A stretch of DNA of 64,000 nt from Azolla caroliniana (lineage: Eukaryota; Plantae; Polypodiophyta): assembly GCA_043228905.1 (NCBI GenBank), contig JBHGNT010000011.1:6758001-6822000 (forward strand), given 5' to 3'. Position 1 is the stretch's first letter. Every line of letters begins with the position of its first letter. The notes under the pieces were generated by a model. It was not told where the DNA came from and made no database searches. It saw only the letters and a program-made list of their open reading frames with translations. This document shows positions 9,271 to 59,646 of the stretch, one piece after another. A program made the position numbers and the translations under genes.

Positions 9271-10301
9271 TGTCGTGAAGATCCGTCACTACGCGCGGAT
9301 CGTGAGGTGGAACCGCCGGGGTTCTGGACCAGAAGGATTTAGAGTCGATACAAGCTTTGGCGAGAAAGTACTTAAGATAGATTGGGAAAGAGAGAAGTTG
9401 AGATTAAAAGATTGAGAAAGATTGATTGAAGTTTTATCTTTGGATTTAAGAAACAAGTTACACCATCAATTTGATAACAAATTTCTTCCTCTTAATTTTC
9501 ATAAAAGAAAACCGTGTTTTTTCTCCTCCCCCTTCCCTCTTTTATAGATGCTCTCATGCATATGATGCATGTGAGGGTACAAGACATGCATAAATTGCAT
9601 GTTTGCCATTTGGCGCTTATGTATTACATGTGGTGCATGATAACCATGTCACTCATTTTAGCTCTCATGTATGAGAATTTACATGTAAAAGTACAATGAT
9701 AGAAATATAATTTCAACTAAATAGCATGGCTTAATGGTAAGCCAATTGACTCCTAACTTGGAGGTGCAAGGTTCGAATCCTTACTTGCTCTCCTTGTATA
9801 TGTAAATATGTATATATATTTATTTATCTAGTCATCGGACGCCGGTTCGCCGGATACCGTCGGTTACCGGTGCCTAGCCGGATTGCCACCGGATCACCAG
9901 TTCTATCGCCGGTTCGGTTTTGGTTGGCCAAAACCCTTTATGAGTAGCTAGCCCACCTCCACTCTTAGTTCAAGTTACCTTGAACTCTCCATGCTTCACA
10001 CATAGACACAAAGATAATATCTTTTGCTCCACATTATATATGATGAGAGCTGTATTTGTCGTGCCTATGTGGGATATCTCACAATTTTCTCTTTTCCTTT
10101 CACAAACTTTATACCCTCATATCTTGACATTTAGTTGTCCGTTTCTTGTGTAATAAAGTGCATTCGAAACCTCCATCATTTTGTACTTAGATATTAAATC
10201 TATTTAAAATGTTATCTTTACAATTATTGTACTATGTGATTCATACTCGATTTCGTACGTTTTATGGGATTTTCACACTATTGTCGAAAGTCTTCACGAC
10301 A
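9271..10301 (-). repeat. Element B 3' LTR
   Basis: Near-identical direct repeat of 21499-22538. Confidence 0.95.
9720..9791 (+). promoter_or_regulatory. tRNA-like Pol III A/B-box cassette in B LTR (second copy ~21948-22019)
   Basis: A-box tggcttaatgg (9727), D-stem ggctt/aagcc, loop ctcctaa, B-box ggttcgaatcc (9770); acceptor and anticodon stems pair poorly. Confidence 0.7.
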
Positions 10302-10554
10302 TCCACCTCCACCAAACCGCACGTCCTCCGGTACGTGCCAAGAAGAGAAGAAGTGAGATTTCGGCTACGATGATCAATTAGATTCCTCCATGTCTTCATT
10401 TTCATCCGGCCTATTATGTTCATCGTCGAGGTAATCGAGGTCAGGATCCTTGTCTTGTCTTTTTCCCGCAATGGGTACGGCCAACCTTGATCCGTCTAGT
10501 TCCGCAAGGTGGTATGTGGCATTATCGTTGGCACTTGTCACCACATATGGCCCG

Positions 10555-11195
10555 TGTCGAACACAGTGCTCGGCCTCAACCGAGGAATAGGATCAACTCA
10601 CAGAAAACAGGAAATACAAAATGCACGAAGACAATGGAGAGCAGAGTACACAGGATGTTTTACGTGGAAAACCCTAAATGGGAAAAACCACGGGAGTCCT
10701 CAAACTCCAACTATCACTATAAGCAGAGATGTACAATGGTGAGGCTACAAGGCAACAACCTTGAGCTCACTGTCCTCGCCACAGGCGGCGGTAATACACA
10801 GAGGCAACGACCTCTTCGTCTCTCTCTCTCTCTCTCTCTCTCGGCTGCTCACTTAGCTCCCTCTAAGTGGAAAACCAGAAAAATGAGTAACAACAACTAA
10901 ACTGTTTGCCCTAAGTCATATTTATACACATATGACTTTCGGGCTATTTACAAATATAGCCTCAAGGGCTCTTGGCAAACATATTCACAAATATGTCCCC
11001 GCATCCGGATCTCTCTCCGTGTACATTCGTCATCCGGCTCCGTAGCCGGGGTCTTCATCATCCGGCTCCGTAGCCGGGGTACTCTTCATCCGGCTTCATG
11101 CCAGGGTACTCTTCATTCTCCGGTTCCGTAACCGCAACCGGGCTTGCCGTCATTCATCTCCGGCCATCCCATCCGGAGGGACCGAAATCCCAACA
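10555..11195 (-). repeat. Element C 3' LTR
   Basis: tgtcg...caaca; repeat of 15282-15948 lacking one ~28-bp internal repeat unit. Confidence 0.95.
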
Positions 11196-11205
11196 AACTC
11201 CCCCT

Positions 11206-14200
11206 TCACTTCGGCATGGGATGTCTTTCCAGTCCGACCCTCTTCCGGCACGCTTCCAGCTTGTCGGGTGTGAGCACTTTGGTCAGCATATCTGACCCGT
11301 TCTCGTCCGTGTGGATCTTCGTCAGCACGAACTCCTGGTCTTCTATCCTTTCCCGGATCCAGTGATATCTTCGCTGGATGTGCTTCGTCCGGGAGTGATA
11401 GGCCGCGTTCTTCGCAAGGTGGATGGCACTCTGACTGTCGCAGTAGAGTCGGTACTCCTCCTGCTGGATACCGAGCTCTCTAATGAAGTCCTTCATCCAT
11501 ATGATTTCCTTGCCGGCTTCAACAGCCGCCATGTACTCCGCCTCCGTGGTTGACAACGCAACCGTCTTCTGCAGCCTCGACTGCCACGAAACAGCTCCCC
11601 CTGCATACGTCATCACATACCCTGATGTGGACCGGCTGGTATCTGCATCAGCCGACATATCCGAATCGGTAGAGCCGTCGAGTTCGGGCTTACCGGAGCC
11701 GAATCGGAGGCACATGTTCGAAGTGCCCTTTAAGTATTGGAGTATCCATTTGACCGCGTTCCAGTGCTCCTTGCCGGGATGTCTCATGTACCGGCTCACC
11801 ACTCCGACTGCATATCCTATGTCCGGCCTTGTACACACCATTGCGTACATCAAGCTTCCGACGGCAGAGGCATATGGTACTTTCATCATGTCCTCCTTCT
11901 CAGCCTTTGTCTTGGGGCTTTGCTTGCTGGACAACTTGCAGTTTGCCGGGAGGGTTGACCCGACCGGTCTTGCTTCCGACATGTTGAACCGGTGAAGCAC
12001 CTTTGTCACGTACTTCTCCTGTGACAGCCACAACTGCTTCTTCTTCCGGTCCCGGATGATGTGCATCCCTAGTATTTGCCTCGTCAGACCCAGGTCCTTC
12101 ATTGAGAAGGTTCGGTGAAGCGCTTTCTTCAGCATCCGTATCTTGACCTGATCCCGTCCGACGATCAACATGTCGTCCACGTACAGGAGGAGTATTAGAA
12201 AGTCTCCTCCTTCGAACTTCTTCACAAACACGCAGTGATCGGACTGCGTTTTGTGGTACCCTTCGTCGGTCATGAAAGAGTCGAACTTCCGGTACCATTG
12301 CCGGGGAGCCTGCTTCAGTCCGTAAAGGCTCTTCTTCAAACGGCATACCAGGTGCTCCTTCCCTTTCTTCTCGAATCCTTCCGGTTGCTGCATGTAGATC
12401 TCTTCTTCGAGGTCACCGTGAAGGAATGCCGTCTTCACGTCCATCTGTTCCACCTCGAGGTCCATGTTTGCCGCTATGCTCAGCACCGTCCGGATGGAGG
12501 TCATCTTCACTACCGGGGCAAATATCTCGTCGAAGTCGACGCCCTTCTTCTGCTGAAACCCCTTCACCACGATCCTGGCTTTGTATCTCGGGGGGTTTTC
12601 GGCATCTCCCGGTTTCAGCTTGAACACCCACTTGTTTCGAAGTGCCCGCTTTCCTTTCGGCAACTCCACAAGTTCATATGTGTGGTTCTCATGCAGGGAA
12701 TCCATCTCCTCCTGCATGGCACTTAGCCACCTGCGGCTATGGGTGTCAAGCTTTGCTTCTTCAAAGCTCTCCGGCTCCCCCTCGTTGGTTAGCAGCACGT
12801 GCTCTGGTTCCGGAAATCTCCGGGGGGCCCTTCTCTCTCTTAGAGGATATCTCCGTTCCGGAGCTTCGGTAACCGGCTCCTCCGTTTCCTCTTCATCCGA
12901 AACCATTTCGGGATCGGGGCCGGTTCCGGTATCAGTTTCATCTTCCTCGGCCGGATCCTCGAGTGCTAACCGGTTCCTTGCCGGTCGGGACTGCTCTTCG
13001 TAGAGTTGATCCTCACCGGTCGACTTGGAGCTCTTCATCTTCTTCTCCGACTCCCAGTCGGCGAGTGTCTTGTCCTCCATGAAGATGATATCGCGACTCC
13101 GGAATATCTTTTTGTTGACCGGGTCCCATACTCGGTAGCCGAACTCGTCATCGCCGTAACCGAGGAATATGCATGGCCGGGTCTTTGGATCTAGCTTTCC
13201 TCTCCGGTCCTTTGCCACATGCACATATGCGAGACACCCGAACACCTTCAGATGCCGGTAGGATACTTCCCTACCGGTCCACACTCTCTGCGGCGTGTCT
13301 CCGTCCAAAGGTACTGAGGGTGATCTGTTTATCACGTATGTCGTCGTCGACATTGCCTCAGCCCAAAACCCCTTGGGTAATTTCGCATGCGCCAGCATAC
13401 TCCGGACCCTCTCCATTATGGTCCGGTTCATCCTCTCGGCCAGCCCGTTCAGTTCCGGCGTCTTCGGCACAGTAAACTCGAGCCGGATTCCCATCGAACG
13501 GCAATACTCCTCGAATTGCCCTCGGTATTCTCCTCCGTTATCCGCTCGTATCGCTTTCAGCTTTTTTGACGGATTCCCTTTCCACTCTTGCGTGGAGTTC
13601 TTTGAAGACGCACAACACTTGGTCCTTTGTCTTCAACGGTGCCGTCCACAGCTTCCGGCTGTGGTCATCAATGAATGTCACGAAGTACTGGGCTCCGCCA
13701 TGTGACTTCGTTTCTACCTGACACACATCAGTGTGTACCAACTCCAATGGTACACTACGTCTCGTCGGTGGCCTTGAGTGGAAAGAGGTTCGGTTCTGCT
13801 TACCGGCCAGGCAATCGGTGCACTTCTCCAGGTGCACATGCTTCACTGGAATAAGGTTGTCTTCTGCAAGCCTCTTCATCCCCTTCTCACTCATGTGGCA
13901 CAGTCTCTTGTGCCACAGCTCACCGGCAGTGTCGGCTGCCACGTTCAACTCCTCCGGACACAACCAGGCATTCATAAGGTACAGTGTGTTGACTTTCCGG
14001 GCCCGAGCCACTATCAGGCTCCCTTTGCTGAACTTCATGACACCGTTCCGGATGCTACCCGTGTAGCCTTCATCGTCTAGCCTCCCGGCCGAAATCAGGT
14101 TCAATCGAACCTCCGGAACGTGTCGGACATCCTTCAGCAGCATCTTGCATCCGGTTGATGTCATCAGCCACACGTCTCCTATGCCGGCAATCCGGCATGT

Positions 14201-21472: not shown

Positions 21473-21490
21473 TTCACGTCGGGTTCACCA
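21473..21490 (-). promoter_or_regulatory. PBS of element B (tRNA-Trp)
   Basis: ttcacgtcgggttcacca, 18 nt, 8 nt from the LTR. Confidence 0.88.
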
Positions 21491-21498: not shown

Positions 21499-22538
21499 TG
21501 TCATGAAGATCCGTCACTACGCGCGGATCGTGAGGCGGAACCGCCGGGGTTCTGGACCAGAAGGATTTAGAGTCGATACAAGCTTTGGCGAGAAAGTACT
21601 TAAGATAGATTGGGAAAGAGAGAAGTTGAGATTAAAAGATTGAGAAAGATTGATTGAAGTTTTATCTTTGGATTTAAGAAACAAGTTACACCATCAATTT
21701 GATAACAAATTTCTTCCTCTTAATTTTCATAAAAGAAAACCGTGTTTTTTCTCCTCCCCCTTCCCTCTTTTATAGATGCTCTCATGCATATGATGCATGT
21801 GAGGGTACAAGACATGCATAAATTGCATGTTTGCCATTTGGCGCTTATGTATTACATGTGGTGCATGATAACCATGTCACTCATTTTAGCTCTCATGTAT
21901 GAGAATTTACATGTAAAAGTACAATGATAGAAATATAATTTCAACTAAATAGCATGGCTTAATGGTAAGCCAATTGACTCCTAACTTGGAGGTGCAAGGT
22001 TCGAATCCTTACTTGCCCTCCTTGTATATGTAAATATGTATATATATTTATATATTTATTTATCTAGTCATCGGACGCCGGTTCGCCGGATACCGTCGGT
22101 TACCGGTGCCGTCGCCGAATTGCCGCCGGATCACCGGCTCTATCGCCGGTCCGGTTTTGGTTGGCCAAAACCCTTTACGAGTAGCTAGCCCACCTCTACT
22201 CTTAGTTCAAGTTACCTTGAAATCTCTATGCTCCACACATAGACACAAAGATAATATCTTTTGCTCCACCTTATATATGATGAGAGCTGTATTTGTCGTG
22301 CCTATGTGGGATATCTCACAATTTTCTCTTTTCCTTTCACAAACTTTATACCCTCATATCTTGACATTTAGTTGTCCGTTTCTTGTGTAATAAAGTGCAT
22401 TCGAAACCTCCATCATTTTGTACTTAGATATTAAATCTATTTAAAATGTTATCTTTACAATTATTGTACTATGTGATTCATACTCAATTTCGTACGTTTT
22501 ATGGGATTTTCACACTATTGCCGAAAATCTTCACGACA
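21499..22538 (-). repeat. Element B 5' LTR
   Basis: Direct repeat of 9271-10301; followed by TSD acgt. Confidence 0.95.
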
Positions 22539-23638: not shown

Positions 23639-23710
23639 GTCGTAGTAGTATAGTTGTGAGTATTCCCGCCTGTCACGCGGGTGACTCGGGTTCGATCCCC
23701 GGCAACGGCG
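23639..23710 (+). pseudogene. tRNA-Asp(GTC) copy, 3 differences from the array consensus
   Basis: gtcgtagtagtatagttgtgagtattcccgcctgtcacgcgggtgactcgggttcgatccccggcaacggcg; D-loop GG mutated. Confidence 0.88.
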
Positions 23711-28758: not shown

Positions 28759-28780
28759 TGTCATGAACACATCACCATTA

Positions 28781-28853
28781 TGGCGTCACTCGGACTTGAA
28801 CCTCGAACCTTGTAATTCATACTTGAAAACCTCAACCATTAAGATAGCTTATT
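28781..28853 (-). promoter_or_regulatory. tRNA-like A/B-box cassette in I LTR (second copy ~34082-34155)
   Basis: Minus strand tatcttaatggt..(44 nt start to start)..ggttcaagtcc gagtgacgcca. Confidence 0.6.
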
Positions 28854-28916
28854 GTTATATAAAACAATAAAAGCTACTTCTTGTATTACATTGATTATTG
28901 TAAAAACTCTAGATTA

Positions 28917-28980
28917 TTCTAGAATGTTCTAGAATGTCCTAGAGCATTCTAGGTCTAGAACATTCTAGAACATTCTAGAA
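28917..28980 (+). promoter_or_regulatory. Heat-shock element array upstream of TATA (29006-29013) in I LTR
   Basis: TTCtaGAAtgTTCtaGAA and GAAcaTTCtaGAAcaTTCtaGAA: perfect alternating nGAAn units. Confidence 0.8.
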
Positions 28981-29167
28981 ATCTCTAAGCTATTCTATAG
29001 GAACCTATAAATAAGTGCATACATGTATTCTCAAATCAATTCGAATCAACACCAGTCTTTCTCTCATTACATATCTTGTATCCATTCTCTTTCTTTCTCT
29101 ATCTTATACATACATTCTTCTCTATCCTTCTTCCATCACTCTATCTTTTATCCTTGGTTCTGACAGT

Positions 29168-29177
29168 TTGATTCGAA

Positions 29178-30421: not shown

Positions 30422-33400
30422 GTCCGGCCAAAATAGGAGCCATTTGGTTGGACAACCCTAGATATGTACAACCTAGTGTGGGTTCCATTTCTTCCAAGCA
30501 TGTTAGTAGAGTCTTCTCAGCCCTAGTACAAGTTAGGACACCAAGTTGTCAACTTCAAGTCCAAGCCCTCTTAGATACTGAAGCCAATTCTTGTTTCATG
30601 GATAGAGATTTTGCCCAAAAACACCAAATATCCTTGCATACACTTCCTTGTCCAGTTTCCGTAGTAGTGATTGATGGACGCCCCATAGCTTCCGGGAAGA
30701 TATTTGAAGAGTCTGAGCCAATACACATACTCTTGGGGGATTTAGGATGTGTAGTTTCCTTTAACATAATCCGTAGTCCTGAGCATCCAATTGTCCTCGG
30801 TTTGCCATGGTTCGAGCTACATAACCCTAGAATCGATTGGAGGAAGCGAGAAATTAGGTGCCTTTAGTAGAAAATATCATTGTCAAGGATCGAACTCGGG
30901 ATTATCCTCCCAAAGTATATAGTTCTACCGATGCACCATATCCTTCTCATCAAATTTCAGCCATCACATTGCAACAATTGCACCAAGTGGGAGGCAAGGA
31001 GGACCTTTTCTTATTTGCAGTATCAGTGACACCTTCTAGTGTCACTCAAGGGAATTCAGACATCCAAATTCCCAAAAAATATCAAGACTATGCTGATGTT
31101 TTCGACAAAGTCAAAGCTAGTGTTGTTCCAAAGCATCGGCCGTACGACTGTCCTATTGATCTCCAACCAGGAAAAGAGCCTCCGTGGGGTCCGATTTACA
31201 ATTTATCACCCACTGAGCTTGAGGTTCTTCCAGAATACATCGAGGAAAATCTTGCACATGGATTTATTCGACATTCAAAGTCTCCAGCTGGTGCTCCTAT
31301 CTTTTTTGTGAAGAAAAAGGACGGCTCCCTTCGTTTGGTCGTGGACTATCGAGGCTTAAATAAAGTCACCATAAGGAATAGGTATGCTTTACCTTTAATC
31401 TCCAATCTCTTAGAACGCATTTGTGGGGCAAAGCATTTTACCAAAATTGATCTAAGGGGTGCACATAATCTTGTTCGAATTCGGCCAGGAGATGAGTGGA
31501 AAACAGCATTTCGTACTCGGTATGGTCATTTCGAGTATACAGTCATGCCTTTCGGGCTCACAAATGCACCTGCCGTATTCCAACATATGGCAAATGACAT
31601 CTTCCGGGATTTCTTGGATATTTTTCTAATCATCTACCTAGATGATCTATTGATTTACTCTAAAACACAGGGGGAGCATGATATACATGTGCGGCAAGTA
31701 CTTGAACGCCTAAGGAAGTATGGTCTTTACGCCAAACTTCAGAAATGCAGTTTTGATTGCAAACAAGTCGAATTTTTGGGATACACTATTTCATCCCAGG
31801 GTGTTTTCATGGACCCGGCAAAAGTCCAAACAATATTGGAATGGAAACCCCCATGCTCAGTTCAGGATGTCCAGTGTTTCCTCGGATTTGCGAACTTCTA
31901 TCGCAAATTCATACATAATTATTCAAGCATTGTGTTGCCCCTTACTCAACTCACCAAGAAAAATCAAGCATTTTTTTGGAGTATCGAAGCGGACAAGGCT
32001 TTTACGCAGCTAAAAGAGGCATTCACATCAGCACCCATCCTAGCACATATTGATCCTAAAAAGCCATTTACTATTGAGGCGGATGCATCAGACTTTGCAT
32101 TGGGGAGTATCCTATCGCAACCAGGCGAGGACGGGCAGATACATCCAGTCGCGTTTCACTCGAGAAAGTTTACTGTTTCGGAGATAAACTATGAGGTGCA
32201 TGACAAGGAGTTACTAGCTATGGTCGACTCATTCGAGCAATGGCGTCATTTTCTAGAAGGATCACCTCATCAGATTATCATTTATAGTGATCACAAAAAT
32301 CTCACATATTTTCAAACAGCTCGAGTATTAAATAGACGACAAGCTCGGTGGGCCCAATTTCTAACGCGTTTCGATTTCAAGATCATTTTTTGCCCCGGAA
32401 AACAACAAGGGAAAGCAGATGCTCTGTCTCGGCGTTCGTATCTAGCACTTCAACCTGGAGATCCGGCCTTTGACAATCAAAAGCAAACTCTCCTCGGGCC
32501 ATCAAAGCTACAGGTAGCAACAATTTATGCCACACCACTTGATTCTACCCTTCTTGACACTATTCGGCAACAACTTCATTCAGATGATTTTGCTAAGGAT
32601 GTCTTAGCCCACTGTGGTTCAAGTCGTCCATCTTGCTCCACATTGCCAGGGTCATCTCAATATTATAAGGACTTCAAGTGGCAAGATGGTTTACTCTTCT
32701 ACAAGAATCTCCTTTACGTCCCCGACGGATCACCCCGACTTCAAGTGTTGGAACATTGTCATGATGCCCCCATGGCTGGACATTTTGGTATTTCCAAGAC
32801 CATTGAGCTGGTGAAACGTTCGTTTTGGTGGCCTCACTTCCAAAAATTTGTCGAAGATTATGTTCGCACTTGTGACACCTGCTGTCGCGCCAAAATACCC
32901 CGACATCACCCTTATGGCTTACTACAACCATTACCCCCTCCCAACAAGCCATGGCAGTCTATTTCTATGGATTTCATTACGGATTTTCCACCTTCCAAAG
33001 GCTTTGATACTATTTTAACAGTAGTGGATCAGTTTACCAAGATGGCACATTTTGTACCATGTGTAAAGACCATCAATAGTGAAGAAACTGCAGATCTCAT
33101 TATGCGTGAAGTGTTTCGCCATCATGGTCTCCCAAATGATATTATTAGCGATAGAGGTCCTCAATTTATCTCACACTTTTGGAAGCACCTATGGGCAGGC
33201 CTCAAAATCTCTTGCAAACTCTCTTCGGCTTATCATCCACAAACTGACGGACAAACAGAGCGCACAAATCAAACGCTCGAGCAATATCTTCGATGTTTCA
33301 TTAGTTATCAACAAGATGATTGGAGTAAAATTTTACATCTTGCTGAGTTTGCATACAACAACACGGTCCACTCTTCTACCAAAGTTACACCTTTCTTTGC

Positions 33401-34076
33401 CTACACCGGCAACCACCCTCGATGGTGTATACTGGGTCTTCCCGAGGTGTCACGAAACCCTAGTGCGGCGCATCACCTCCACCGACTACAACAAATCCAG
33501 TTCGAGTTATCGTCACATCTTCAGAAAGCGCAAGCACACCATAAGACCAATGCCGATCGACATCGTCTTAAGTCTCCATTTAAGGTTGGTGACCATGTAT
33601 GGTTGCTTCGTCGTCACATCAAGACTACCCGACCCCGTGCTAAGCTTGACTATCAACGCTTAGGTCCTTTTGTCATCACGGCGCAGATTAATGATCCAAC
33701 ATTTCGTCTTAACCTTCCCCCACATATGCGGCTTCACCCTGTCTTTCATAGCTCTCTTTTGGAACCTTGCCACACCTCTTTAATTCCTGATCGTGTCGTG
33801 CCACCACCGCCTTCTGTACAACTTGTGGATGGCCCCGAATACGAGGTAGTTGCTATTCTCGATTCTAAGATTGTGCGCAATAAGCTTTATTATCTAGTTG
33901 ATTGGCTTGGTTATCCTCCGAGTGATCACACTTGGGAACCCATCGATAACGTTTATAATGCTGAAGCTCTGGTCAACGACTTCCATCGTCACTATCCAAA
34001 CAAGCCCGACCCAACAATGTTAACGCCGACTTCCACTTGGCGTTCTCGAAGGAGGGATAGTGTCATGAACACATGA
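30410..34076 (+). CDS. pol: Element I Pol (PR-RT-RH-INT-chromodomain) in the -1 frame to gag; one further frameshift at ~30860
   Basis: LLDTEANS protease, YLDD RT, EADASD RNase H, HHCC + DD35E integrase, EYEVVAILDSK..YYLVDWLGY..TWEP chromodomain; stop lies inside the 3' LTR. Confidence 0.9.
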
Positions 34077-34469
34077 CCATTATGGCGTCACCCGGACTTG
34101 AACCTCGAACCTTGTAATTCATACTTGAAAACCTCAACCATTAAGATAGCTTATTGTTATATGAAACAATAAAAGCTACTTCTTGTATTACATTGATTAT
34201 TGTAAAAACTCTAGATTATTCTAGAATGTTCTAGAATGTCCTAGAGCATTCTAGGTCTAGAACATTCTAGAACATTCTAGAAATCTCTAAGCTATTCTAT
34301 AGGAACCTATAAATAAGCGCATACATGTATTCTCAAATCAATTCAAATCAACACCAGTCTTTAGCTCTCATTACATATCTTGTATCCATTCTCTTTCTTT
34401 CTCTATCTTATACATCCATTCTTCTCTATCCTTCTTCCATCACTCTATCTTTTATCCTTGGTTCTGACA

Positions 34470-46530: not shown

Positions 46531-49500
46531 GCATTTATGGTACAAGTGGGGCCGTCCATTTACGCCGCGAGTTCTCCGGCTCTGGCATGTTTGGTGGTGA
46601 ATGGGTTAGGTGGCGTAGTGCCCAGGTATGGTTTAAGGCGAAACCCATTCTGCTTTTGGCATACTACTTCCCCAGCTAGCGTACCTAGTTGGAACATGCC
46701 TTGTTCCGCTCCAATTATCCAGTATGGACCGTTCCAGCGGAATTGTAACTTCCTTGGCATATGGCGCATGTGGGTTTGGAAAACCAGCACCGCCCGACCG
46801 ACGGCGAACTTCTTTTCCCTTGCGTTCCGATGTCGATCCACAAACGCTTTACGCCGTCGTTGTTCCTGCTCCAACACCACAATGTTGTGTACGCGTTTTT
46901 CCCCGAGTTCGAGTAGCTGGTGGAGCCGTACCTCCTTTGACTTGGCTTCCGATAGTCGGTCCAGTTTCTGAATCCACAAACTGGGTACCTGAAATTCGAC
47001 CGGCATCACAGCCTCCAACCCAAATGCTAGTCGAAACGGTGTTGATTGTATGCTTGTCTTGTAGCTGGTTCTATACGCCCATAACACACTCTGTAATTTG
47101 GTATGCCAACCCATTCTATTTTCATTGATGATTTTCTTCAAGATTGTCTGCAACGTCTTATTGGTGGATTCCGCTAACCCATTCGCCTGTGGATAATATG
47201 GCGTACTCTTCTTATGGACTACGGTGTAATGATGTGTTAGTTCCCGAACCACTGTATTGAGAAAGTGACTCCCCTAGTCATTGATGAGCTCAATCGGACA
47301 GCCGGCACCAGATGTGCTCGTAAAGGAATCTGGTTGTGACGACCGCCGTATTTTCTCGTAGTGCCTTTGATTCTACCCACTTGGTGCAATAATCCATAGC
47401 TACCAATATGTATTTATTGCCCATACGGGCTGATGTCGGTGTGAAGGGGTCCACGAAATCCAATCCCCACTTTTGGAAGGGGTCTAGCGGTAATACGGGC
47501 TAGTGTGGCATCCTTGCGCCTCCGTGGGGTTGGCCCATCCGTTGACACAAATCACACTTTCTACAATACTCGGATGCATCCTTCTGCGTTGTTGGCCACT
47601 ATAAGCCCGCCTGCCATATCTTCCGGGCTGTAACGTCGCCCGCGTAATGGCCACCTGTCGTGCCGCAATGTGCTTGCCGTAAAACTGCTTCTTTCTCATC
47701 CTGACGTACCCCATGTTGCCAAATGTCGTCACTGCCTTTGTGATATAAATCTCCTTCGACGAGGCAGAAGTTACGGCTTCGGACGGCTAGTCGTTTGTTC
47801 TCGTCCGTGCGTAATTGTGGTGGAGGCAGTCCCGTAGTCAAAAAGTATGTCATTTCCATAAGCCACTGGTCTGGAAAGGTCGATTCCGTTCTTTCTGCTA
47901 GTGCTGCTACCCACAGGATGTCGACGTCCATAAAATCGTCGTCATCTTTCTGTACTGTTTCTCCATTCTCGAGTTTGCTCAAAAAATCTGCCACTGCGTG
48001 TTGCGTCCTTGGTCGGTGTTGGATTACGAAATCGAATTCTTGGAGCAGCAGCATCCATCGCGCCAATTTCCCCGTCAGGGCTTGTTTCTCCACCAAATAC
48101 AGCAGCGCCGAATGATCCACGTGGAACATGAATTTCCTCCCTAGTAAATAATGCCGGAATTTATTGATGCTATAGATCATCCCTAGCACCTCCCGCTCCG
48201 TTGTGGAATAGTTATGCTCTGCTGCTGATAATTTGCGACTAGCGTAGTACACTGGCCGGTACCAGTTTGGTTCAGTGAGCTGCATTCTAAGTGCACTTCC
48301 TATTGCTATGTCCGAGGCGTCGACGAACACGTGGAATGGCTTCGCCCAAACTGGTGGTTGTACGACGGGGGCCTGCGTGAGCATTATCTTAAGTGCCTCA
48401 TAGGCTTTGTCCTCCATTGCTGTCAATTGGAAGGGAGTCTGATGTACGGCAGCATGTAACGACGTGGCGAAGTCCGCCAAATATCGTATCATCCGACTAT
48501 GACACCGTATTTGTCCTAAAAACCGGCCGAGTGATTTCGCGTTTATCGGAGTTTTGGCTTGCGTAATCGCGGAGATCTTGTTTGGATCGACCACTATTCC
48601 CTCCTTGCTGACTATATGACCCAGGAGACTCCCGCTGGTCACGCCGAAAGCACATTTCGCGGGATTCAGGCTTAAGCGTGCGGTGCGACAACATTCCAGG
48701 CACAATTGTAGGTGCGTAAAGTGGTCTATTGTTCTCCCATATACTAGAAAGTCGTCTAAAAAAACTTGCATGAAAGCCAGAACGTATTCCCCAAAGATCT
48801 CTGTAATTGTCCGTTGAAATGTTGTCGGCGTCATCTTTAGCCCAAACATCATGACGACTGCCACATATACTCCCTAGTTCGTGACAAATGCCATCTTTTC
48901 TTGGTCCTCGGGATGCATGCGTACCTTTGTTATACCCACTGAAGCCATCTAAAAAACTGTACATCTCATGTCCTGCGACGACATCCAGTACGCTATCAGT
49001 GAAGGGTAAAGGGAATGCATCTATAATGGTTATGGCGTTTAGTTTTCGGTAATCCACGCATACCCGTATTTTGCCGTTTTTCTTTGGAACGACCACTATC
49101 GGGCTTAACCAGGTGGCTTGTTTAACTGGCCGTATGAACCCCGCCTTCAAGAGTTTGTCAATTTCTTCTTTTATGTGGGTCGCATAGTTCGGGTTCATGT
49201 GGTAGCGGCGCTACTGGACGGGTTTTGCGTCGGTTGCTAAATTGATCTTATGCTAATAGAACTTGGGATCTAACTCCTTCATGTCCTCGTGAGCCCAAGT
49301 GAACACATCTTTATATCTCGTGAGTAGTCCGATCATTGTGTTTCTCTGGTCTGGCCTTAATTCCTTTGCGATGGAGAGGAAACGGGGTTCCGACTCCATA
49401 CCCACATTTACTTCTTCCAGGGGGGAAGCGGTGACTCGTCGTGAAATTTCCATTTCCCTTTCGAATGCCGCTCGTGCTCTACTGAGTTCCAATATTGACT

Positions 49501-52368
49501 CTGGGTTTGGTTCGTAAGTCTCATCATGGAGAATAGTGGTCGTGCCATATTTTGCCGCGGTTGTGATGACGTCGATTTCGAACAACGGAATGATCCGTGG
49601 GTGCTCATCTAAGTATGCCTCCAATTCTGCATCCTCCACCCCCGCCAACATATTTATATCTTCTGCGTATAATGGTTTTATACCCTTGGGTTGTGGCATG
49701 CTTCCTTCCGTAGGTACGCGAACCTTGGTGCGTCTGTGTCAGAAACTGATACACTTGTGATGCCAGCTCTGCTTGATATTTGATGCCCGAAGCCATGGTC
49801 TGCCCAGAAGCATTGGGTATGCCCCTGGGGCATCCAAGGCGAGGACGACCGCCGAGATGTCCAAGCGATGTCCGCCCAATGGTCGTACTGAGCGGGTATC
49901 TGCCATTCGGAGCCAGAATGGGCAAGACTCCCATTCCGAAATGCCTAACTACTCGCGCGCTAATTACATTGACGCCTGAGCCGCCATCGATTACGCATCC
50001 AGGAATTTCCTGTCCGTGTAATATTAATGTAATAGCCGGGTTGTGGTGATCCACTACAGGCGGGTCGTCGCTAACGTCTGTAAGGTTTGTAGCGACGCTC
50101 ACCCCGGGTATGCCCGTCACGCGTTCTTCCATGGTTTGGCAGAAGTGTGGGACTAGCTGCAGCAGCTTCTCCATGGTTAGCGTTATCTCGCAGCCCGCTA
50201 ATGCCTGCCAAATGGGGTCCGGGAGCGGTCCTTCGTCCTCTACTTGATCCCTCGCATTCGCGGACTCCTTCCACATGCGCTTTGTATTGGTCGCTTTTTC
50301 TTTTTCCACCCATGCCTTGGCTTGTCGTCGTATCTCATCTTGCGCAGCCCAATCAACCGTTTTTGTTTGTTGGCGTGTCGTGACTTGCTACACTTCCGTC
50401 GTAATCGTGTTGACGGCGAGCCCTTGCCCTTGCATGTTGGGCATTGCGTGACATAATGTCCGGGCTGCTGACAAATAAAACAATGGATGCTTGATTCACC
50501 CTTCTCGGCTCTTGGTGGTGTGTGCCGATCCCCTGGTGCGACTTGCTCCTCCCAGTCCGGCCTTGTTTGTCGAAACGCACGCGGTGGTTGCTGTTGGTCC
50601 CATCGTGGTTCTTGGTGTCGCTCATGTCTCGAGCTTTCGTCATAACGCCAGTGATCTCGATATTGCCGCGGCTTCCCACAATAACCATTGAAGCCGCCAC
50701 GTTTGTTTGTCGTCCGGTGATTCTCATAGCTCCGACCCCCTTTAGCATAACTTGGATGTCCACGATAGTCCTCATCCTCCGGTTCGTCTTCCTCGGAATC
50801 ATTGTGATTTCGGCGATTCCGGTGGTGCCGGTCGTCCCATGGGTTGCGATCCATATACCGTGGTCGGTCTTGTTGCCTCCTTTGTTTAGTACGGCGTGGG
50901 GGACACTGCGTGTCCATGCTGCGGATTGTGGGAGCGGCTCTGTTCAACATATTGTATTCGCATTGTTCGACTGTGTGAGCCTTCGAGTGGCAGATTGGGC
51001 AGTGGATTCGCATGTTGCACTCCACTGCGGAATGCCCCGAGTTCAAGCAAATCGTGCACTGGATTGCTTGACGAAACTGGCGTTCCTCGTCCTGGGGTAA
51101 CGCTTGTCGTAAGGAGGACATAGAAAACCTTTCCTTCTCCTCGTCTAACTCGAGCTGTAACGCTTGTTCAATGAACATATCCGTCATTTCCCCTTTCACG
51201 CTATTGTTGTTGAGCATTGCCCGGATGGGTTAGCGTAATGCTACCAGAAATGTCTCTCGAGCCTCGTCCTCTGCGGGGCTCCGTTCTAGTTTCTGCCGTA
51301 AATTTTGGAAACGTAAGCTGAAGTCTGCGATCGTCTCGGTCGGCAGTTGCTTAATCGTGTAGAACTATCCGAGGATTTCGCGTTGTGGAACCCTCCGATG
51401 GAAGAACCGCAAGAAAGTGGACTACAGCTGATCGAAGGTTGTGATTGCTAGTAAATCCATCTGTGAATGCCAAAATGTCGCTCGCCCATCCAATGTCAAC
51501 CCGAACTCCGTCATTTTCGACTGCTGCGCTACCGCCTCTAAAAGGCTTTGCGCCATGTGGTTCGCATTCCAGACATTAAGGAACATGCGAATATGGGTTG
51601 CGGCGTCGGTTTCGCCGTTAAAGCGGGGATAGGCAAAGGCCATGCTGGGGGCTACGGCGGGTCGGGAAAGACAACAGGGTGGTTGTGGTGAGCGTGGTCC
51701 CCGGGTATCGCCGAGGTGTTTGGAGAGCGAAGAATCACCTTTGTAATCACGACAGGTAGTACCGAGGTCGCTGAGGCGAGGCTTCTGCCGTGCGCGTTCC
51801 TCTGCCTGGCGTGTGACGAACCTTGTGATTGGCCGGTCTTGTCGTGTTGGTTCTCTGGGGCGTCTGCGGCTAAACATCCATTCATTGTTGCTCGTCTGTG
51901 AGAAGACACAGATCACCAAGCGTGCCAAAAGTGTTACCGATTAGGAACAGGGTCTGTGGTCAGTCCTTCGACCTAGACCTCCAAGTGATTGTGGAACCAC
52001 GAATGGGGCGTCTATGCGTAATGCGTAGGGGAATGTCTCCCTTAACCTATCAGCGTATAAGGGGGACGGCTACAACCAACTCCTTAGCAATGGTTACACT
52101 TACGTTCTTACACGCTCAGGTATTCCAGACACATAGTAGATTAGCCGTAGCTATACATAGACTTTCAGAGAGGATAGAATTCTATTATGATACGCTTCTT
52201 TACATTCCAAAATACACGCTCCTTCTATCAGAGGTTTTTTTCCCTTTATATACACAGGGTCAATTTAGCCGTTCACACTTCCTACGTGAAACGTTACATG
52301 TGTTATGATCTTATATTATTTCTTATTCCTACACTCTTGTCCGTCGGTTACTATTCCGGCGGACAACA
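46531..52368 (-). mobile_element. Element G: degenerate non-chromovirus Ty3/gypsy (Athila/Selgy-like RT), 3' LTR missing
   Basis: 5' LTR 51932-52368 (tgtta..caaca); PBS-like tggcacgcttggtg (tRNA-Arg-like); gag with three CCHC knuckles; VIDGGSG protease; WLSPIVVVPKKNGKIRVCVDYRKLN..FLDGFSGY..FLDD RT; FVDASD RNase H; YYPQANGLAE integrase. Confidence 0.9.
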
Positions 52369-53474
52369 GGCGCGAAGGACAGCGTGAATCTCCTGTCATC
52401 TTCTAGGGCATTCTTGCTCGCTCCATTGGATTCTCTATCTCTTTCAAACACTTGGGGGCGTACAGTGGGTCGTCAGTGAGCGAAGGCCCATATTACCATG
52501 ATCTCGTCCGAGTGCAGACATGGGTATTCCAGTTCATATGTGGACGAACATCGTCACATAACATGTATTGGCGACAAAACTAGGCCATATTTTTGACATT
52601 CCGGTACTTGGTCCGAGCAAGTAGTACAGAGGATAGATCCTCCAACACCAACATGTTGTTGTAGTATAGTGGTGAGTATTCTCACCTGTTACGTGGGTGA
52701 CCCGGGTTCGATCCCCGGCAATGGGGCGAATCTCTTGTCATCTTCTAGGGCATTCTTGCTCGCTCCGTTGGAATCTCCATCCCTCTCAAACACTTGGGGG
52801 CGTACAATGGGTCGTCAGCGAGCCAACGCCCATATTACCATTATCTCGTGGGCGGGGCGAAGCTTTTGTAATCTTCTAGGGCATTCTTGCTCACTCTGTT
52901 GGATTCTCTATCCCTTTCAAACACTTGGGGGCGTACAGTGGCTCGTCAGCGAGCCAACGCCTATATTACCATTATCTCGTCCAAGTGCACACATGGGTAT
53001 TAAAGTTCATATGCGGATGAACATCGTCGCATAACATGTATTGGCGACGACACCGGGCCATGTTTTCGACAGTTCAATACATGGTCCGAACAAGTAGTAC
53101 TCACCACTATACTATACTGTTTCCAACACCCACATGTTGTTGTAGTATAGTGGTGAGTATTCCCGCCTGTTACACGGGTGACCCGAGTTCGATCCCCGGC
53201 AATGGGGCGAATCTCTTGTCATCTTCTAGGGCATTTTTGCTCGCTCCGTTGGATTCCCTATCCCTTTCAAACACTTGGGGGCGTAAAGTGCGTCGTCAGC
53301 GAGCCAGGGCCCATATTACCATGATGTCATCTGAGTGCACACATGGGTATTCCAGTTCATATGCAAACGGGCATCTTCGCATAACATGTATTGGCAACGA
53401 AACCAGGCCATGTTTTCGACATTCTGGTACATGGTTCGGACAAGTAGTACAAAGGATACTCCATCAAACACCAA
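52369..53474 (+). repeat. tRNA-Asp satellite, block 5
   Basis: tRNA copies at ~52655 and ~53136. Confidence 0.95.
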
Positions 53475-56400
53475 TTAGATTTCTTGAGGCAATTAGATGA
53501 TGTGGTAAACGAGTAAGACCGGCCAAAATCGGAGCCATTTGGTTGGACAACCCTAGGCATGTAACGTCCGTCCCTAGTTGTGGTCCCATTTCATCCGGTC
53601 AAGTTAGTCGAGTTTTCTCTGCACAAGTTGAGCTTAACACATCTAGGTGCCATTCAGTCCTAGCTTCTACCCTCTTAGACTCTGGAGCCAACTCTTGTTT
53701 CATGGATCATGAGTTTGCTGTAATGCACAATATTCAGTTGCATATGCTCCCAAGCCCAGTGTTTGTCGGAGTCGTTGATGGATGCCCCAAAGCATTAGGT
53801 GATATAGTTGAAGAGTCTGAACCAATTCATGTAGTCCTAGGCAATTTGGCTAGTGTCATCTCATTCAACATCATTAGTAGTCCAAAGCACTCACTAGTTC
53901 TTGGTCTTCCATGGTTTGAGCTACATAACCCAACTATTGATTGGAGAAAAAGAACCATTGAAGAGGTCACAATACAGACCGAGCCTCTTAAAACTCCAAC
54001 AAAGGATATGACATTCCAAAAGATTTCGACAATCTCTATACATCAATTACGTGAGGAAGGACGGAAGGAAGACATGTTGGTGTTCGCAGTTTTAGCAACT
54101 CCCACATCGAGCTCACAAGAATCGGGGGTCCAACTACCGAAGAAATATATAGAATTCTCCGATGTTTTTGATAAGGTGAAGGCCAATAGACTACCAGAGC
54201 ATCGAGCATATGATTGCCCGATTGATTTGCAGCCCATAAAAGAGCCTCCATGGGGGCCAATTTATAACCTTTCACCCACGAAGTTAGAGGTTCTTCGGGA
54301 ATATATCGATGAGAACTTGGCGAATGGGTTTATCTAGCATTGAAGATCTCCTGTCGGCGCACCCATATTTTTCGTTAAGAAGAAAGATGGTTCACTTCGT
54401 CTGGTCGTGGTGCTTACAATCTTGTTCGAATTTTTCCTGGGGATGAATGGAAGACTGCTTTTCGTACTCGCTATGGCCATTTTGAGTATACAATGATGCC
54501 ATTTGGTCTCATCAATGCACCAACAGTTTTCCAACATATGGCGAATGACATTTTTCGAGATTTCCTCGATATTTTCGTCATAATTTACCTAGATGATATC
54601 TTGATCTACTCAAAAACTCAAGAGGATCATGATAAACATGTTCGACAAGCTTTGCAAGGGTTGCGTGAATATAGTCTCTATGCAAAATTGGAGAAGTGTA
54701 GTTTTGACCAGCGTCAAGTGGAATTTTTGGGGTACATAGTCTCTTCACATGGCATCTCTATGGATCCAGCAAAGGTTCAAACAGTTTTGGATTGGCAAAC
54801 ACCACAGTTTGTGCGAGATATACAATGTTTTTTAGGGTTTGCAAACTTTTATCACAAGTTCATCAAAGATTATTCAAAGATCGTATTGCCCCTCACTCAA
54901 CTGAGACAGAAGAATCAACCATTTGTGTGGAGTATAAATGCAAACTCTGCATTTGAAGGATTAAAGCAAGAATTTACATCCGCACCAATTTTGATGCATG
55001 TTGATCCATTGAAGCGCTTTATACTTGAAGCTGATGCATCCGACTTCGCAGTAGGAAGCGTATTATCCTAGATTAGCAATGATGGCCAACTACACCCTGT
55101 GGCTTTTCATTCACGGAAATTCGAAGCTGCAGAAATCAATTATGAGATTCACGACAAAGAGCTTCTTGCCATTGTGGATTCTTTTCAACAATGGCGTCAT
55201 TTTTTGGAGGGTTCTTCTCAACAAATCATTGTCTATAATGATCACAAAAATCTAATGTACTTCCAAAGTGCTCGAGTCTTGAGTTGTCGACAAGCTCGTT
55301 GGGCCCAGTTTTTAACTCGTTTTGATTTCGTAATTTTATATCGCCCTGGGACGCAACAAAGCAAAGCAAATGTTTTATCTCAGTGTTCATATATGGAACT
55401 TCAACCAGGAGAGGCCGCATTTGAAAGTCAGAAGCAAATCCTCTTGGGTCCTGACCGTCTACGACTAATGGCTTTTCATGCTATAGACACACCCGAGGAT
55501 TCAAGTCTTCTGGACTCCATTCGGGAGCATATTGAGACTAATGAATTCGCCCAATATATTCTAAACCATATTATCCCAGTTCGTGCTTCTTGTCACAATC
55601 TCAAAATCCTCGACAAAATCTCTTATATGTGCCTGATGGTCCTTCTCGACTCCAAGTCTTGCAACAATGTCATGATACACCAATGGCTGGACATTTTGGC
55701 ATCCACAAGACTTTGGTGTTAATTTCTCGAAGGTATTGGTGGCCACGACTTCGCCATTTTGTTACGGATTATGTTCATATTTGTGATACATGTTGCCGAT
55801 CCTAAAAACATCGACATCATCCATATGGCTTATTACAGCCAATGCCTATTCCTGAGAGTCCATGGAAATCTATTTCATTGGACTTCATTATGGATCTACC
55901 ACCTTCCAAGGGTTTTGATTCTATTCTCACGGTAGTAGATCGTTTTACCAAGATGGCACATTTTCTTCCTTGCACAAAGGCCATTATGAGCCAAGAGACA
56001 ACCGAGTTACTCATGCGAGAGGTGTTTCGGCATCATGGTCTTCTGATGATATTATCAGTGATCGGGGTTCCCAGTTCATCTCAAAATTGGTGGCACATGT
56101 TCAAACTCTTACATACTTCTTGCAAACTCTCTTCCGGCTACCATCCAGAAACTAACGGAAAGAGTGAGCGCACCAACCAAACAGTAGAACAATATCTTCA
56201 TTGTTTTGTCAACTATCAACATGATGATTGGGTTGATCTATTACATTTGGTGGAATTTGCTTACAACAAATCAGAACATTCTTCTACTGGATATTCCCCA
56301 TTATTTGCAAACATTGGGTTCCATCCTCGTTGGACTATGCTTGAACATCCTGAACTTCCGACGAACCCAGCTGCTGAAGATCGGCTCACCCGACTCCAAG

Positions 56401-57834: not shown

Positions 57835-59209
57835 TGTTGTGGCGTGGACAAAAGATATCGTGAAAGTGAGGAAGGAATCACTGGGATTATGGGAAGAGAC
57901 GAAAAAGTAGAGATAGAGTAAATAGAGATCAACAAGATATGACAAGATAGGATATTGAATGATATTTGAAGGAATAAACGAGATTTATCATTATTTGATG
58001 AAAAAGTTACAAAAGTGGTTGTAAGCGTCGTTGATCCTTCGAACTTCGTCACAAGATAATCGCTCTTCTCTTTCTTGATAGTAGGCCACAACAATCTTCA
58101 CTTCAATATTTTGATGAAGATATGGCTCGAACGGCCTCCCTCTTGTTGAGAGTTGACCACCACGATCGACAAGCTAGAGCTCCACCTTTATGTTGAACTT
58201 CTTCCTTTCTTTCTCTATTTTATGGTATCTCTTATGTAATATATATTTGATTGATATCTCATACCTCTCCCCCTTTGATCTTCTCTTTCACCATTTAAAT
58301 AGGTGCCCCCATGCATATGATGCATTGGAGGGTACAAGTCATGCATGTAGTGCATGAAATGCATGATCGCCATTTGGCGTTCATGCATTACATGTGATGC
58401 ATGATAGGCATCTCGCTCATTTGAGCTTTCATGTATGAAAAAATATATGGCATAAGAATAAACATGAAAATATAATCCTAAAAACAAAGGACCTAGCCTA
58501 ATGGTAGATGTGTTGGCTTTGGTATATGAGGTTGTAGGTTCAAGTCTCTCAAATATTATTGAATACAACATTTAACGTCGTTTTTATATCATGAAGCAAA
58601 TACTTTATTTTATATATATTATTAGTATAGAGTAAATGGTAAGATTTGAAAGTCATAAGGTGGGGTTATTAGTTCAAGTCCTCTCTTGTTCGTGTAATAT
58701 AATATATTTATCTATATATTATTTTTCTTTACATCTATATAATATTATCATGTGTTGTTAATATTATCTTTATATATAAAACATTATCATATTTTATTTT
58801 AGTTACGTATTTATCTTATTATAGACTTTTAATGTAAAGCTTTCGTACTTCACGACATCAACCCCCTCTAGACCTGCACATCCTCCTGCATTTGCCACTA
58901 TCTTTCATCTTCATGTTGATCTATTGGAGGAGGTTCAAGCTTAAACCTTTTCTTAAATACTTTTTTCCTCTTTCCAGGTACCACATCTAGGGTTAGTGTC
59001 CCATCCAATTCACTAAGCTTAGAAGTAAAGTTATCATATACTTTTCTTACTATATAAGGCCCAAACCATCTTTCAACGAACTTGCGGACGATGCTATGTT
59101 GATTATCTAAACTGCTATCATACACGAGCACCCAATCTCCTTCTTCTATTTTCTTAGGTCGAATTCTATGAGCTTTATCAAAACGAATTTTATTCTTCAG
59201 TCGAGCCTC
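57835..59209 (-). mobile_element. Element J: 3' LTR (57835-58857), PPT and integrase tail of a B-related gypsy; interrupted by K
   Basis: tgttgt...cttcacgaca; central LTR block homologous to the B LTR; KIEEGDWVLVYDSSLDNQHS..RWFGPY matches the B integrase. Confidence 0.9.
58487..58692 (+). promoter_or_regulatory. Two tandem tRNA-like A/B-box cassettes in J LTR
   Basis: tagcctaatgg (58494)..ggttcaagtct (58537) and tagagtaaatgg (58628)..agttcaagtcc (58671); both 43 nt start to start. Confidence 0.62.
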
Positions 59210-59313
59210 TGTCAGGAATAGTACTGAGACAGAGAAGGAATTAGTACTAAACGAAGGATTAGTACTATGAGAGGTGTGGAACTTCTTCGAGAGAAGGAAG
59301 AAGTGAGCGAGAC

Positions 59314-59356
<43 letters not shown>

Positions 59357-59574
59357 TGATAAGAAAGATATTTATTATATGAAGAGAATATACAACGGTG
59401 GCTAAAAGGCTTAAGACTGGCGTTGAACCAATTTGGTTCAACATAATGCCTAGTGCCCTCTTTTATAGTGTTTTCAGGAGTAATCCTGAAGCTTCTAGAA
59501 TGTTCCAGAGAAATCTGGAATATACACTAATTTCCTATAATAAAATGTAAATGAAAATAATATCTTACGTATTA

Positions 59575-59646
59575 CAATAGATGGTCTAATGGTCAAGAGC
59601 TCGACCCATATAACCTAAGGTCATGGGTTCGAGTCTTGCCATATCA
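59575..59646 (+). promoter_or_regulatory. tRNA-like A/B-box cassette in K LTR
   Basis: tggtctaatgg (59582)..ggttcgagtct (59626). Confidence 0.65.

Follow-up and report, generated by a model that had tools for sequence, protein, structure and literature searches.

The LTRs of four Gypsy retrotransposons in the analysed window, a 64-kb stretch of Azolla caroliniana DNA, contain in their U3 regions a cassette that resembles the internal promoter of a tRNA gene: an A box and a B box at fixed spacing, antisense to the element and preceded by an AT-rich tract, are conserved and inherited within lineages, while the tRNA stems have been lost. This points to selection acting on a DNA-level Pol III-type promoter and not on a tRNA. 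The best explanation, on which we are nearly evenly divided, is that the cassette may serve as an outward-facing tRNA-gene-type promoter, likely bound by TFIIIC and TFIIIB, which would act in cis as a barrier keeping the Pol II promoter of the LTR usable.

Seven strict B-box matches were found on the two strands of the window, every one in an LTR of the elements B, J, I or K, and each is preceded by an A box starting 43–44 nt earlier (start to start). The tRNA-Asp gene of the satellite has the same spacing (43 nt), as had been noted before. The cassette in the B 3′ LTR (9727..9780, plus strand; A box at 9727, B box at 9770) has no mismatches and a spacing of 43, and its twin in the B 5′ LTR (21955..22008, plus; 21955 and 21998) has boxes that are nearly invariant among genomic copies. 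J contains two cassettes on the plus strand, of which J1 (58494..58547; 58494 and 58537) is the positional orthologue of that of B, and J2 (58628..58681; 58628 and 58671) is a second, more worn copy situated 134 nt farther out, with one mismatch per box to the textbook consensus. On the minus strand, the cassette of the I 5′ LTR (28792..28846; A box 28846, B box 28802; one mismatch, spacing 44) lies 34 nt in from the outer LTR edge and has a twin in the 3′ LTR (34094..34148; 34148 and 34104). The cassette of the K LTR (59582..59636, plus; 59582 and 59626; no mismatches, spacing 44) lies 16 nt inside the outer edge. All positions given for the four elements in the preliminary description were confirmed, and its A-box pattern finds six of the seven pairs, J2 needing one extra N.

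The carriers belong to two Gypsy lineages, B and J being Phygy-like and I and K Tcn1-like chromoviruses. The 3′ LTR of B (9271..10301, minus), with a PPT upstream, is 97.4% identical to the 5′ LTR (21499..22538, minus) with which it pairs, and the 4-bp NCGN target duplication that is a Phygy feature occurs as ACGT on both sides of B and after the J 3′ LTR (57835..58857, minus), which likewise has a PPT upstream. The tRNA primer-binding site of B (21474..21490, minus) is one we take to be of the tRNA-Trp type; Trp is the dominant type among Phygy elements. The 5′ LTR of I (28759..29165, plus; 5-bp target duplication CCGGT) and its 3′ LTR (34061..34469, plus) are 98% identical, and K is represented by its 3′ LTR (59210..59651, minus), its 5′ end lying outside the window. 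In the integrase, both I and K have the chromodomain PF00385; in the same check on the Phygy-like pair, the J integrase end has no Pfam match and that of B is interrupted. Gag/pol domains extend over several kb in B, I and K. About 4,000–6,000 contig records cover the B LTR in each of three DNA runs. Contigs over it were also present in run X17, which we guess to be RNA, but as contigs show neither strand nor start, they are silent on expression.

LTR pairs, PPTs and ORF strands place all seven window cassettes antisense to their element, and the same orientation was found in 17 of 17 scored locus cassettes, in agreement with the antisense orientation described earlier. From the start of the A box to the TATA-like site the distance is 113–325 nt (K 113, I 158, B 179, J1 191 and J2 325 nt), within the roughly 100–400 nt first described; in the nine primary family cassettes having such a site it amounts to 113–206 nt, and cassettes of the Tcn1-like clade are situated 16–49 nt from the LTR edge. 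A block-wise order-2 Markov model of the window, simulated 200 times, yielded on average 0.73 B boxes per simulation (maximum 4) and not a single A/B pair. When 12 LTR stretches were subjected to dinucleotide shuffling, the observed cassette score was reached in 0 of 300 shuffles for eight Tcn1-like families, in 1 of 300 for L014, in 6 of 300 for L038 and in 0 of 100 for B and J.

Conservation was compared between and within families. The majority fraction, computed from 13 family representatives, averaged 0.80 in the boxes, 0.61 in the spacer and 0.52 in the flanks, the p values of the between-family contrast (8e-4 and 2e-6) being generous since the families are related. Among genomic copies of B from four runs, variants at a frequency of at least 3% were present at 1 of 22 positions in the boxes and at 9 of 32 in the spacer (Fisher p=0.028); the sole box variant is an A to G change at an R position, by which the consensus is kept, and all four bases directly 5′ of the A box are variable. 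Indels at this frequency were absent from the B copies. Compared with all non-box positions examined, the contrast is weak (1/22 versus 19/120, p=0.14) because the stretches 21880–21917 and 22009–22021 are variant-free as well, possibly owing to an edge effect. B boxes were not significantly cleaner in high- than in low-coverage contigs (p=0.11). The motif AGGT at tRNA positions 44–47 is conserved as much as the boxes, and G/T at positions 8, 46, 47, 53, 54 and 55 is invariant in 13 of 13 representatives. The view that the boxes are conserved and the intervening sequence is not applies to boxes over spacer, in families as well as in B copies, and is refined by AGGT.

No covariation was found in the acceptor, D, anticodon and T stems, where pairing equals that of partner-shuffled controls in every stem, which argues against a tRNA product. 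The acceptor stem contains 18 of 91 possible Watson-Crick pairs, and neither ARAGORN nor Rfam calls a tRNA on the cassettes. A functional tRNA gene was rejected on these grounds. Thus the earlier statement that boxes are kept and stems are not is supported, and box-over-spacer conservation between and within families, together with stems lacking covariation, supports the proposed selection on promoter-type DNA signals and not on a tRNA.

A cassette conserved in its boxes might alternatively work in the genomic RNA, where U3, complementary to the D, variable and T loops of a tRNA, would capture a tRNA in the manner of the Ty3 primer half in U3. The U3 region of Ty3, also a Gypsy element, pairs with the T arm and the D arm of its primer (PMC5371799), and the conserved blocks described here, AGGT included, correspond to single-stranded tRNA loops at a spacing colinear with a tRNA. 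We nevertheless regard this as quite improbable. The Ty3 site matches its own primer tRNA (PMC5371799), whereas the Tcn1-like carriers self-prime: I has no tRNA primer-binding site and a predicted self-primer (29038..29049, plus) that lies 32 nt downstream of the TATA-like box (29006) and is complementary in 12 of 12 positions to 29168–29179 just behind the LTR, a Tcn1-like feature, and L012, equally devoid of a tRNA site, self-primes from a different complementary pair. The primer-binding site of B implies a primer T stem unlike that of its cassette. Moreover, the G-to-A and T-to-C changes compatible with G-U wobble are absent from the 13/13 invariant G/T positions, and the AT peak upstream would have no role in RNA pairing. 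Since I primes itself and the primer of B is a different tRNA, the cassette is not required for priming, and a self-made tRNA primer or bipartite primer-binding site was largely rejected.

The upstream tract is a further promoter-like trait. AT content peaks at 86% at 21–40 nt upstream of the A box, compared with 57–65% farther up (12 representatives), and reaches 77–97% as a local peak at −50..−15 in all LTR cassettes listed; in K, the tract (59532..59567, plus; 86%) is a putative place for TFIIIB, which is described to load onto AT-rich upstream tracts (PMC3082873, PMC7990762). The plant CAA motif is at its canonical place (−7..−3) in one of 13 representatives, namely B, and 1–3 nt closer in five others. 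Most B boxes contain a CpG, which may be methylated in heterochromatin. The strict spacing between A and B box is tighter than TFIIIC requires.

Given this full promoter layout, a divergent Pol III promoter might be in use, with antisense RNA from the 3′ LTR reading through the PPT and on into the end of the integrase, which would damp or tune the element or act as a decoy. Long transcripts would be possible in K, I, L001, L004 and L038, where the first T4 lies 398–1026 nt off. A second antisense A/B pair, missing from the preliminary description, is located in the protease-RT linker of I (30886..30938, minus; two mismatches, spacing 42, T4 11 nt downstream) and in both copies of L004; with T4 11–16 nt past the B box, these linker copies resemble a whole tRNA-sized unit. 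They have no AT-rich tract, and that of I (54–60% AT) is away from the LTR edge. In the LTR cassettes, T4 occurs within 40 nt downstream in 8 of 13 representatives and elsewhere hundreds of nt away; given distances between 0 and roughly 1000 nt, the length of any RNA is not conserved. Since the terminator place is not conserved, the RNA would have no conserved fold and a transcript from a Tcn1-like 5′ LTR would enter random host DNA, we consider a role of antisense RNA unlikely.

With respect to distribution, the A/B pair was found in 19 of 64 scorable Tcn1-type LTRs, 18 of which fall in one integrase clade of a quick tree with SH-aLRT support only; I and K belong to this clade, and every scored member has the cassette. 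None of the remaining 45 LTRs, of Tcn1 or fungal type, contains the pair at up to 2 mismatches. Cassettes in LTRs overall have 0–3 mismatches over 22 positions and a spacing of 43–46, in keeping with the A/B layout of type 2 promoters. Five repeat-derived copia LTRs (best 3–5 mismatches) and the Phygy-type LTR pair 39428/43226 (best 3–4) have no cassette, which rules out a host-wide property of all LTRs. The metagenome search covered the Tcn1-like clade, and breadth on the Phygy side rests on B and J and on the read data for B; all cassette-bearing loci come from one assembly series, so that host and clade are confounded. Searches of viral contigs gave two distant loci only, and a search of prokaryote genomes with the Phygy integrase gave no match.

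The preliminary description had proposed that the four families acquired the cassette convergently. This is not supported: B and J share flanking LTR sequence (76% over 178 nt) in which both cassettes have an identical offset, and I and K are members of the single clade in which all scored members carry it, so that four-way convergence was rejected and the cassette is, judging from these comparisons, present by descent within each lineage. Between J cassette and TATA lies a U3 block (58359..58387, minus) with TGCATG repeats, presumably RY-type sites, which is 28/29 identical to Tcn1-like L013. As J and Tcn1-like L009–L013 have this 28/29-nt block in common and their U3 order is colinear, descent combined with exchange of a U3 module between the Phygy-like and Tcn1-like lineages is suggested, and from this we infer a single cassette origin with a U3 swap.

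The cassette could also be selectively neutral, left over from the capture of a tRNA or the head of a SINE, its antisense orientation being a by-product of tRNA copying during plus-strand synthesis. In the I group, the linker pair is apparently a separate antisense capture whose boxes barely exceed the spacer in conservation (8/11, 19/31, 9/11); this and the many LTRs lacking any cassette fit such an origin. Boxes and spacing survive, however, in 10 families with varying flank lengths and integrase ends 59–81% identical to K, and the boxes are better conserved than the spacer between and within families, which makes a relic the least probable of the alternatives.

In the favoured barrier explanation, AT-rich tract, A box and B box in U3 would provide putative docking sites for TFIIIC and TFIIIB, and predicted factor occupancy rather than an RNA would be under selection. 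An occupied cassette might form a nucleosome-free barrier acting in cis, by which the Pol II promoter of the element, about 110–210 nt further in, would stay usable once the element has landed in silenced chromatin. The bound Pol III complex might instead restrain this promoter, confining activity to Pol III-released states. The same sequence evidence applies, and tRNA genes in yeast exert position effects on adjacent Pol II promoters. Yet the place at the outer edge, facing host flank, suits a barrier better, and a purely repressive site should easily be lost in competing lineages, although all scored clade members retain it; restraint thus has little probability in our view. It is very improbable, too, that bound TFIIIB/TFIIIC offers a landing pad by which the integrase of the element itself, or those of others, would be attracted to LTRs and TE islands. 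Ty3, DGLT-A and Tj1 are described to target Pol III genes, but no insertion lies upstream of the A box in any of the seven window cassettes, the loose ends around the B cassette look like subfamily flanks and not element termini (24 of 179 listed), and B prefers NCGN sites.

For the barrier, background comes from yeasts, where tDNAs and their boxes are reported as heterochromatin barriers (PMC7990762), and from moss, whose chromodomain gypsy copies are located in heterochromatic islands (PMC7466625). Counted against it were the scarcity of CAA, the B-box CpG, the strict spacing, the non-edge linker copy of I and the box contrast (p=0.14) and coverage test (p=0.11) mentioned above; the 45 Tcn1- or fungal-type LTRs, the five copia LTRs and the 39428/43226 LTRs manage without a cassette.

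The closest known system is formed by the Helenus TRIMs (TRIMp3; Kojima, 2024, PMC10886601). The earlier remark that no description was known is accordingly to be restricted, since tRNA-derived A/B boxes without a functional tRNA are described for Helenus LTRs, and AGGT precedes the B box in the LTRs displayed there; those boxes, however, are sense in the examples displayed and by word count in the supplement (B-box words: 120 sense, 7 antisense), and they belong to non-autonomous elements of 311–1263 bp, whereas the carriers here are protein-coding Gypsy elements with antisense boxes. Helenus genomic RNA is thought to be made by Pol III, whereas here a TATA-type promoter adjoins the cassette. 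Autonomous partners are expected there to rely on Pol II without Helenus-like LTRs, and "not a few LTRs" in Repbase are said to resemble part of a tRNA, an observation that paper did not analyse (PMC10886601). Cassandra and Ajax TRIMs likewise have the internal Pol III promoter of a small RNA gene inside the LTR, but this is a 5S type-1 promoter that drives the transcript of a non-autonomous element (PMC10886601). Yeast tDNA/TFIIIC barriers, which are situated at boundaries, share A/B boxes, AT-rich sequence upstream and the proposed action, but are host chromosomal and established by mutation (PMC7990762), whereas the present cassette is mobile, resides in a retrotransposon and is a putative barrier. 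Among elements of non-seed plants, Tcn1 chromoviruses resemble I and K in chromodomain and self-priming, and Phygy elements resemble B in the 4-bp NCGN duplication and perhaps in a primer-binding site of the Trp type; the passages on these elements mention no tRNA-like LTR cassette (PMC6317226, PMC2864245). The miRNA cluster of bovine leukemia virus comparably places type 2 Pol III promoters within a replication-competent retroelement, but internally and not in the LTR, with defined miRNA hairpins and degenerate boxes (PMC12498455).

A conserved B box next to the LTR promoter can be point-mutated, which makes directly testable one possible answer to the question of how retrotransposons remain transcribable in the silenced chromatin into which they insert. 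That protein-coding Gypsy elements in a non-seed plant are equipped with a tRNA-gene insulator, an outward-facing TFIIIC/TFIIIB platform at the LTR edge that moves along with each new copy, shields the Pol II promoter from surrounding heterochromatin and was swapped with U3 between two distant lineages, is possible, though we hold it to be rather doubtful. If true, the capture of Pol III promoters would extend beyond non-autonomous TRIMs, whose RNA they drive, to protein-coding elements, for which they cannot do so, and the genome would be seeded with many mobile TFIIIC sites. Even if the cassette is only a relic, genome annotations would pick up additional tRNA-like promoter matches from such LTRs.

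The window consists of nested LTR retrotransposons within a satellite (repeat ~354 bp) whose unit contains a tRNA-Asp(GTC) gene (stretches at about 1300-5280, 22900-25830, 36850-39400, 44600-46560, and 52280-53500; 18 ARAGORN calls, copies mostly worn). Retrotransposon insertions interrupt this satellite, two of them within the tRNA sequence itself (near 25826 and 39428). Element B (minus strand; LTRs 21499-22538 and 9271-10301, 97.4% identical; target site duplication ACGT) and element J (LTR at about 57835-58857) match the description of Phygy. Two others, I, with LTRs at 28759-29165 and 34061-34469, and K, with one at 59210-59651, have chromodomains and match that of Tcn1-like chromoviruses; both labels are putative, given by fit to descriptions. 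Phygy elements are described with 4-bp NCGN duplications and mostly tRNA-Trp primer sites (PMC6317226, PMC2864245), and the named relatives of the B protein are from liverworts and one fern, which makes a non-seed plant the likely host. A further element at 39428-43754 has 530-bp LTRs (91% identical), termini resembling B and J, a stop-free frame of 883 codons (40237-42888, minus strand) and no cassette.

Antisense pairs of tRNA-gene-type A and B boxes had been claimed in the LTRs of B, J, I, and K, and these pairs are present. The B box of the preliminary description has seven matches on the two strands of the window, all in LTRs of these four elements and all antisense to their own element. 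Its A pattern partners six of them at 43-44 nt, and the seventh, in the second and more worn cassette of the J LTR (J2), only with one added base. Simulated sequence held a mean of 0.73 B boxes and an A/B pair in 0/200 simulations. Dinucleotide shuffles of single LTRs never attained the observed score in eight families (0/300 each) or in B and J (0/100); in two copies, both worn and of low coverage, it was attained in 1/300 and 6/300.

The query for a search of metagenome contigs was an alignment built from 48 integrase C-termini, blind to LTRs. Of its 567 confirmed hits the 80 best were taken and, together with two loci from a viral scan and two window LTRs, gave 84 rows; 64 were scorable (LTR start callable with at least 100 nt) and 20 were not. 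Among these best 80 hits plus four, 19 of the 64 scorable rows carry an antisense pair with a spacing of 43-46, its B box lying 16-49 nt away from the LTR edge; over 22 positions, mismatches number at most two in 16 of these rows and three in the other three (L010, L014, L038). At locus L073 the contig is rearranged and the B side alone is trustworthy. At up to two mismatches, no antisense pair occurs in the 45 remaining scorable rows (two reach three mismatches, at spacings 41 and 49) and no sense pair in any row. In a quick tree of 151 columns, with L002 entered as a cassette row by eye from 90 nt and L020 put among the unscored rows for its doubtful LTR start, 19 of 20 cassette rows, including I and K, group with two unscored rows in a single branch (SH-aLRT 96), and none of the 44 cassette-free rows falls inside it; the remaining cassette row, L038, is placed elsewhere, at a fork that the tree does not resolve. 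All positive loci derive from one series of assemblies, which confounds host with clade.

Across 13 representatives (ten Tcn1-like, B, J1, and J2, the latter two being the J cassettes), the majority fraction averages 0.80 in the boxes, 0.61 in the spacer, and 0.52 in the flanks; tRNA positions 8, 46, 47, 53, 54, 55, and 58 are invariant, and AGGT at 44-47 is conserved too. Stem pairing (Watson-Crick in 18/91 acceptor, 22/52 D, 20/65 anticodon, and 10/39 outer T pairs) is at the level of partner-shuffled controls, as expected from the preliminary description, and neither ARAGORN nor Rfam calls a tRNA on the cassettes; a functional tRNA was therefore rejected. Genomic B copies from four runs, compared over a 142-nt stretch, vary at 20 positions at a threshold of at least 3%, namely 1/22 box positions (an A-to-G change at position 15 that the consensus permits), 9/32 in the spacer, and ten in the 5′ flank, among them all four bases directly before the A box; no indels reach 3%. 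Preferential box conservation within this family thus holds against the spacer (p=0.028) but is weak against all other positions (p=0.14). Contig coverage was no significant predictor of box quality (p=0.11). At 21955-21963, other repeats in the runs match the B cassette from the A box onward with different 5′ flanks, a hint of more cassette-bearing subfamilies.

Upstream of the A box, AT content is highest (86%) at a distance of 21-40 nt, a place corresponding to that of a TATA-like tract in plant tRNA genes (PMC3082873). A CAA motif is canonical in 1/13 representatives, and the first T4 follows at 0 to 1026 nt. Because boxes and upstream tract are conserved while fold and terminator are not, predicted factor occupancy on DNA is favored. 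The region might instead pair as RNA with a tRNA, as described for Ty3 (PMC5371799); such pairing, however, would permit wobble changes, and none is present. A selected DNA-level site of Pol III type, whatever its purpose, is quite probable.

Convergence in four families, as previously proposed, gives way to at most two LTR origins, since B and J have LTR sequence beside the cassette in common (offsets 16 and 18 nt) and I and K belong to one clade. From A box to TATA, the J U3 aligns with the Tcn1-like loci L013, L012, and L009 at scores of 53, 47, and 35, each reached in 0/300 mononucleotide shuffles, a lenient control for repeats; B scores lower (28, 28, and 18), and a comparable likeness to J is absent from K, I, and L004. 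Common to both lineages is a block of TGCATG repeats flanking a GCCAAATGGC core (window 58359-58387; L013 695-723; U3 of L009-L012), 28/29 nt identical between J and L013, and the U3 parts follow one order in J and these Tcn1-like loci; L009 has a CACGTG-type core instead. Such motifs are similar to the RY and G-box sites in promoters that respond to ABA or desiccation. The simpler reading of the likeness between the lineages is that they exchanged a U3 module, the less simple one that they converged on repeated factor sites.

The protease-RT linker holds a second antisense pair, on the minus strand, in I (30886-30938) and in both L004 elements (1010-1062 and 6334-6386), hence in 3/21 linkers examined and in the I group only. 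Its spacing is 42, T4 follows 11-16 nt downstream, and it sits in an insertion of ~65-80 nt relative to K, where a short B-like remnant occupies the corresponding place in the linker. Shuffles attain two mismatches in 1/300 each; the three copies are 83-89% identical in DNA, with a small box-over-spacer contrast. The reading frame of copy I shifts within this linker, and the two related Tcn1-like elements of L004 (143-9244) seemingly share one LTR at 4200, either as a true tandem or because the assembly joined them. The linker pair shows that antisense tRNA-like capture recurred. Strand bias alone does not prove function, since plus-strand synthesis copying a tRNA would yield this orientation without selection.

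Being antisense, the cassette is unable to make genomic RNA. The published study of SM-Tcn1 found no priming mechanism for it (PMC2864245). A putative 12-nt self-primer in I (29038-29049 pairing with 29168-29179) lies 32 nt after the TATA-like box, and L012 has a complementary pair of different sequence (about 4304-4316 with 4454-4467); judged by sequence, these Tf1-type pairs covary. The B primer site implies a T stem differing from the B cassette, and a requirement for priming was largely rejected on these grounds. The best reading, held tentatively, is that the cassette, fixed in position with the host flank on one side and the Pol II promoter on the other, may act as a barrier or keep chromatin open. 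It draws on this fixed place, on the barrier activity described for yeast tDNAs (PMC7990762), and on the heterochromatic niche reported for moss chromodomain gypsy elements (PMC7466625); against it, many LTRs manage without a cassette, and most B boxes contain a potentially methylated CpG.

Pol III transcribes the Drosophila mdg1 LTR, HIV-1 U3/R holds a tRNA-like stretch, and TFIIIC tolerates variation in box spacing. Our search, which covered open-access literature, found no protein-coding Gypsy element described as carrying an A/B cassette antisense in its LTR; the nearest cases are Helenus (TRIMp3), Ajax, and Cassandra. Kojima (PMC10886601) mentions tRNA-like LTRs in Repbase, unanalyzed there; the Helenus LTRs displayed also have AGGT, like the window and Tcn1-like cassettes at 44-47, whereas orientation and carrier type differ. 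The cassette is a real, probably selected, lineage-wide feature, whose function we infer, and it extends the known capture of Pol III promoters in LTRs to an antisense orientation and a protein-coding carrier.
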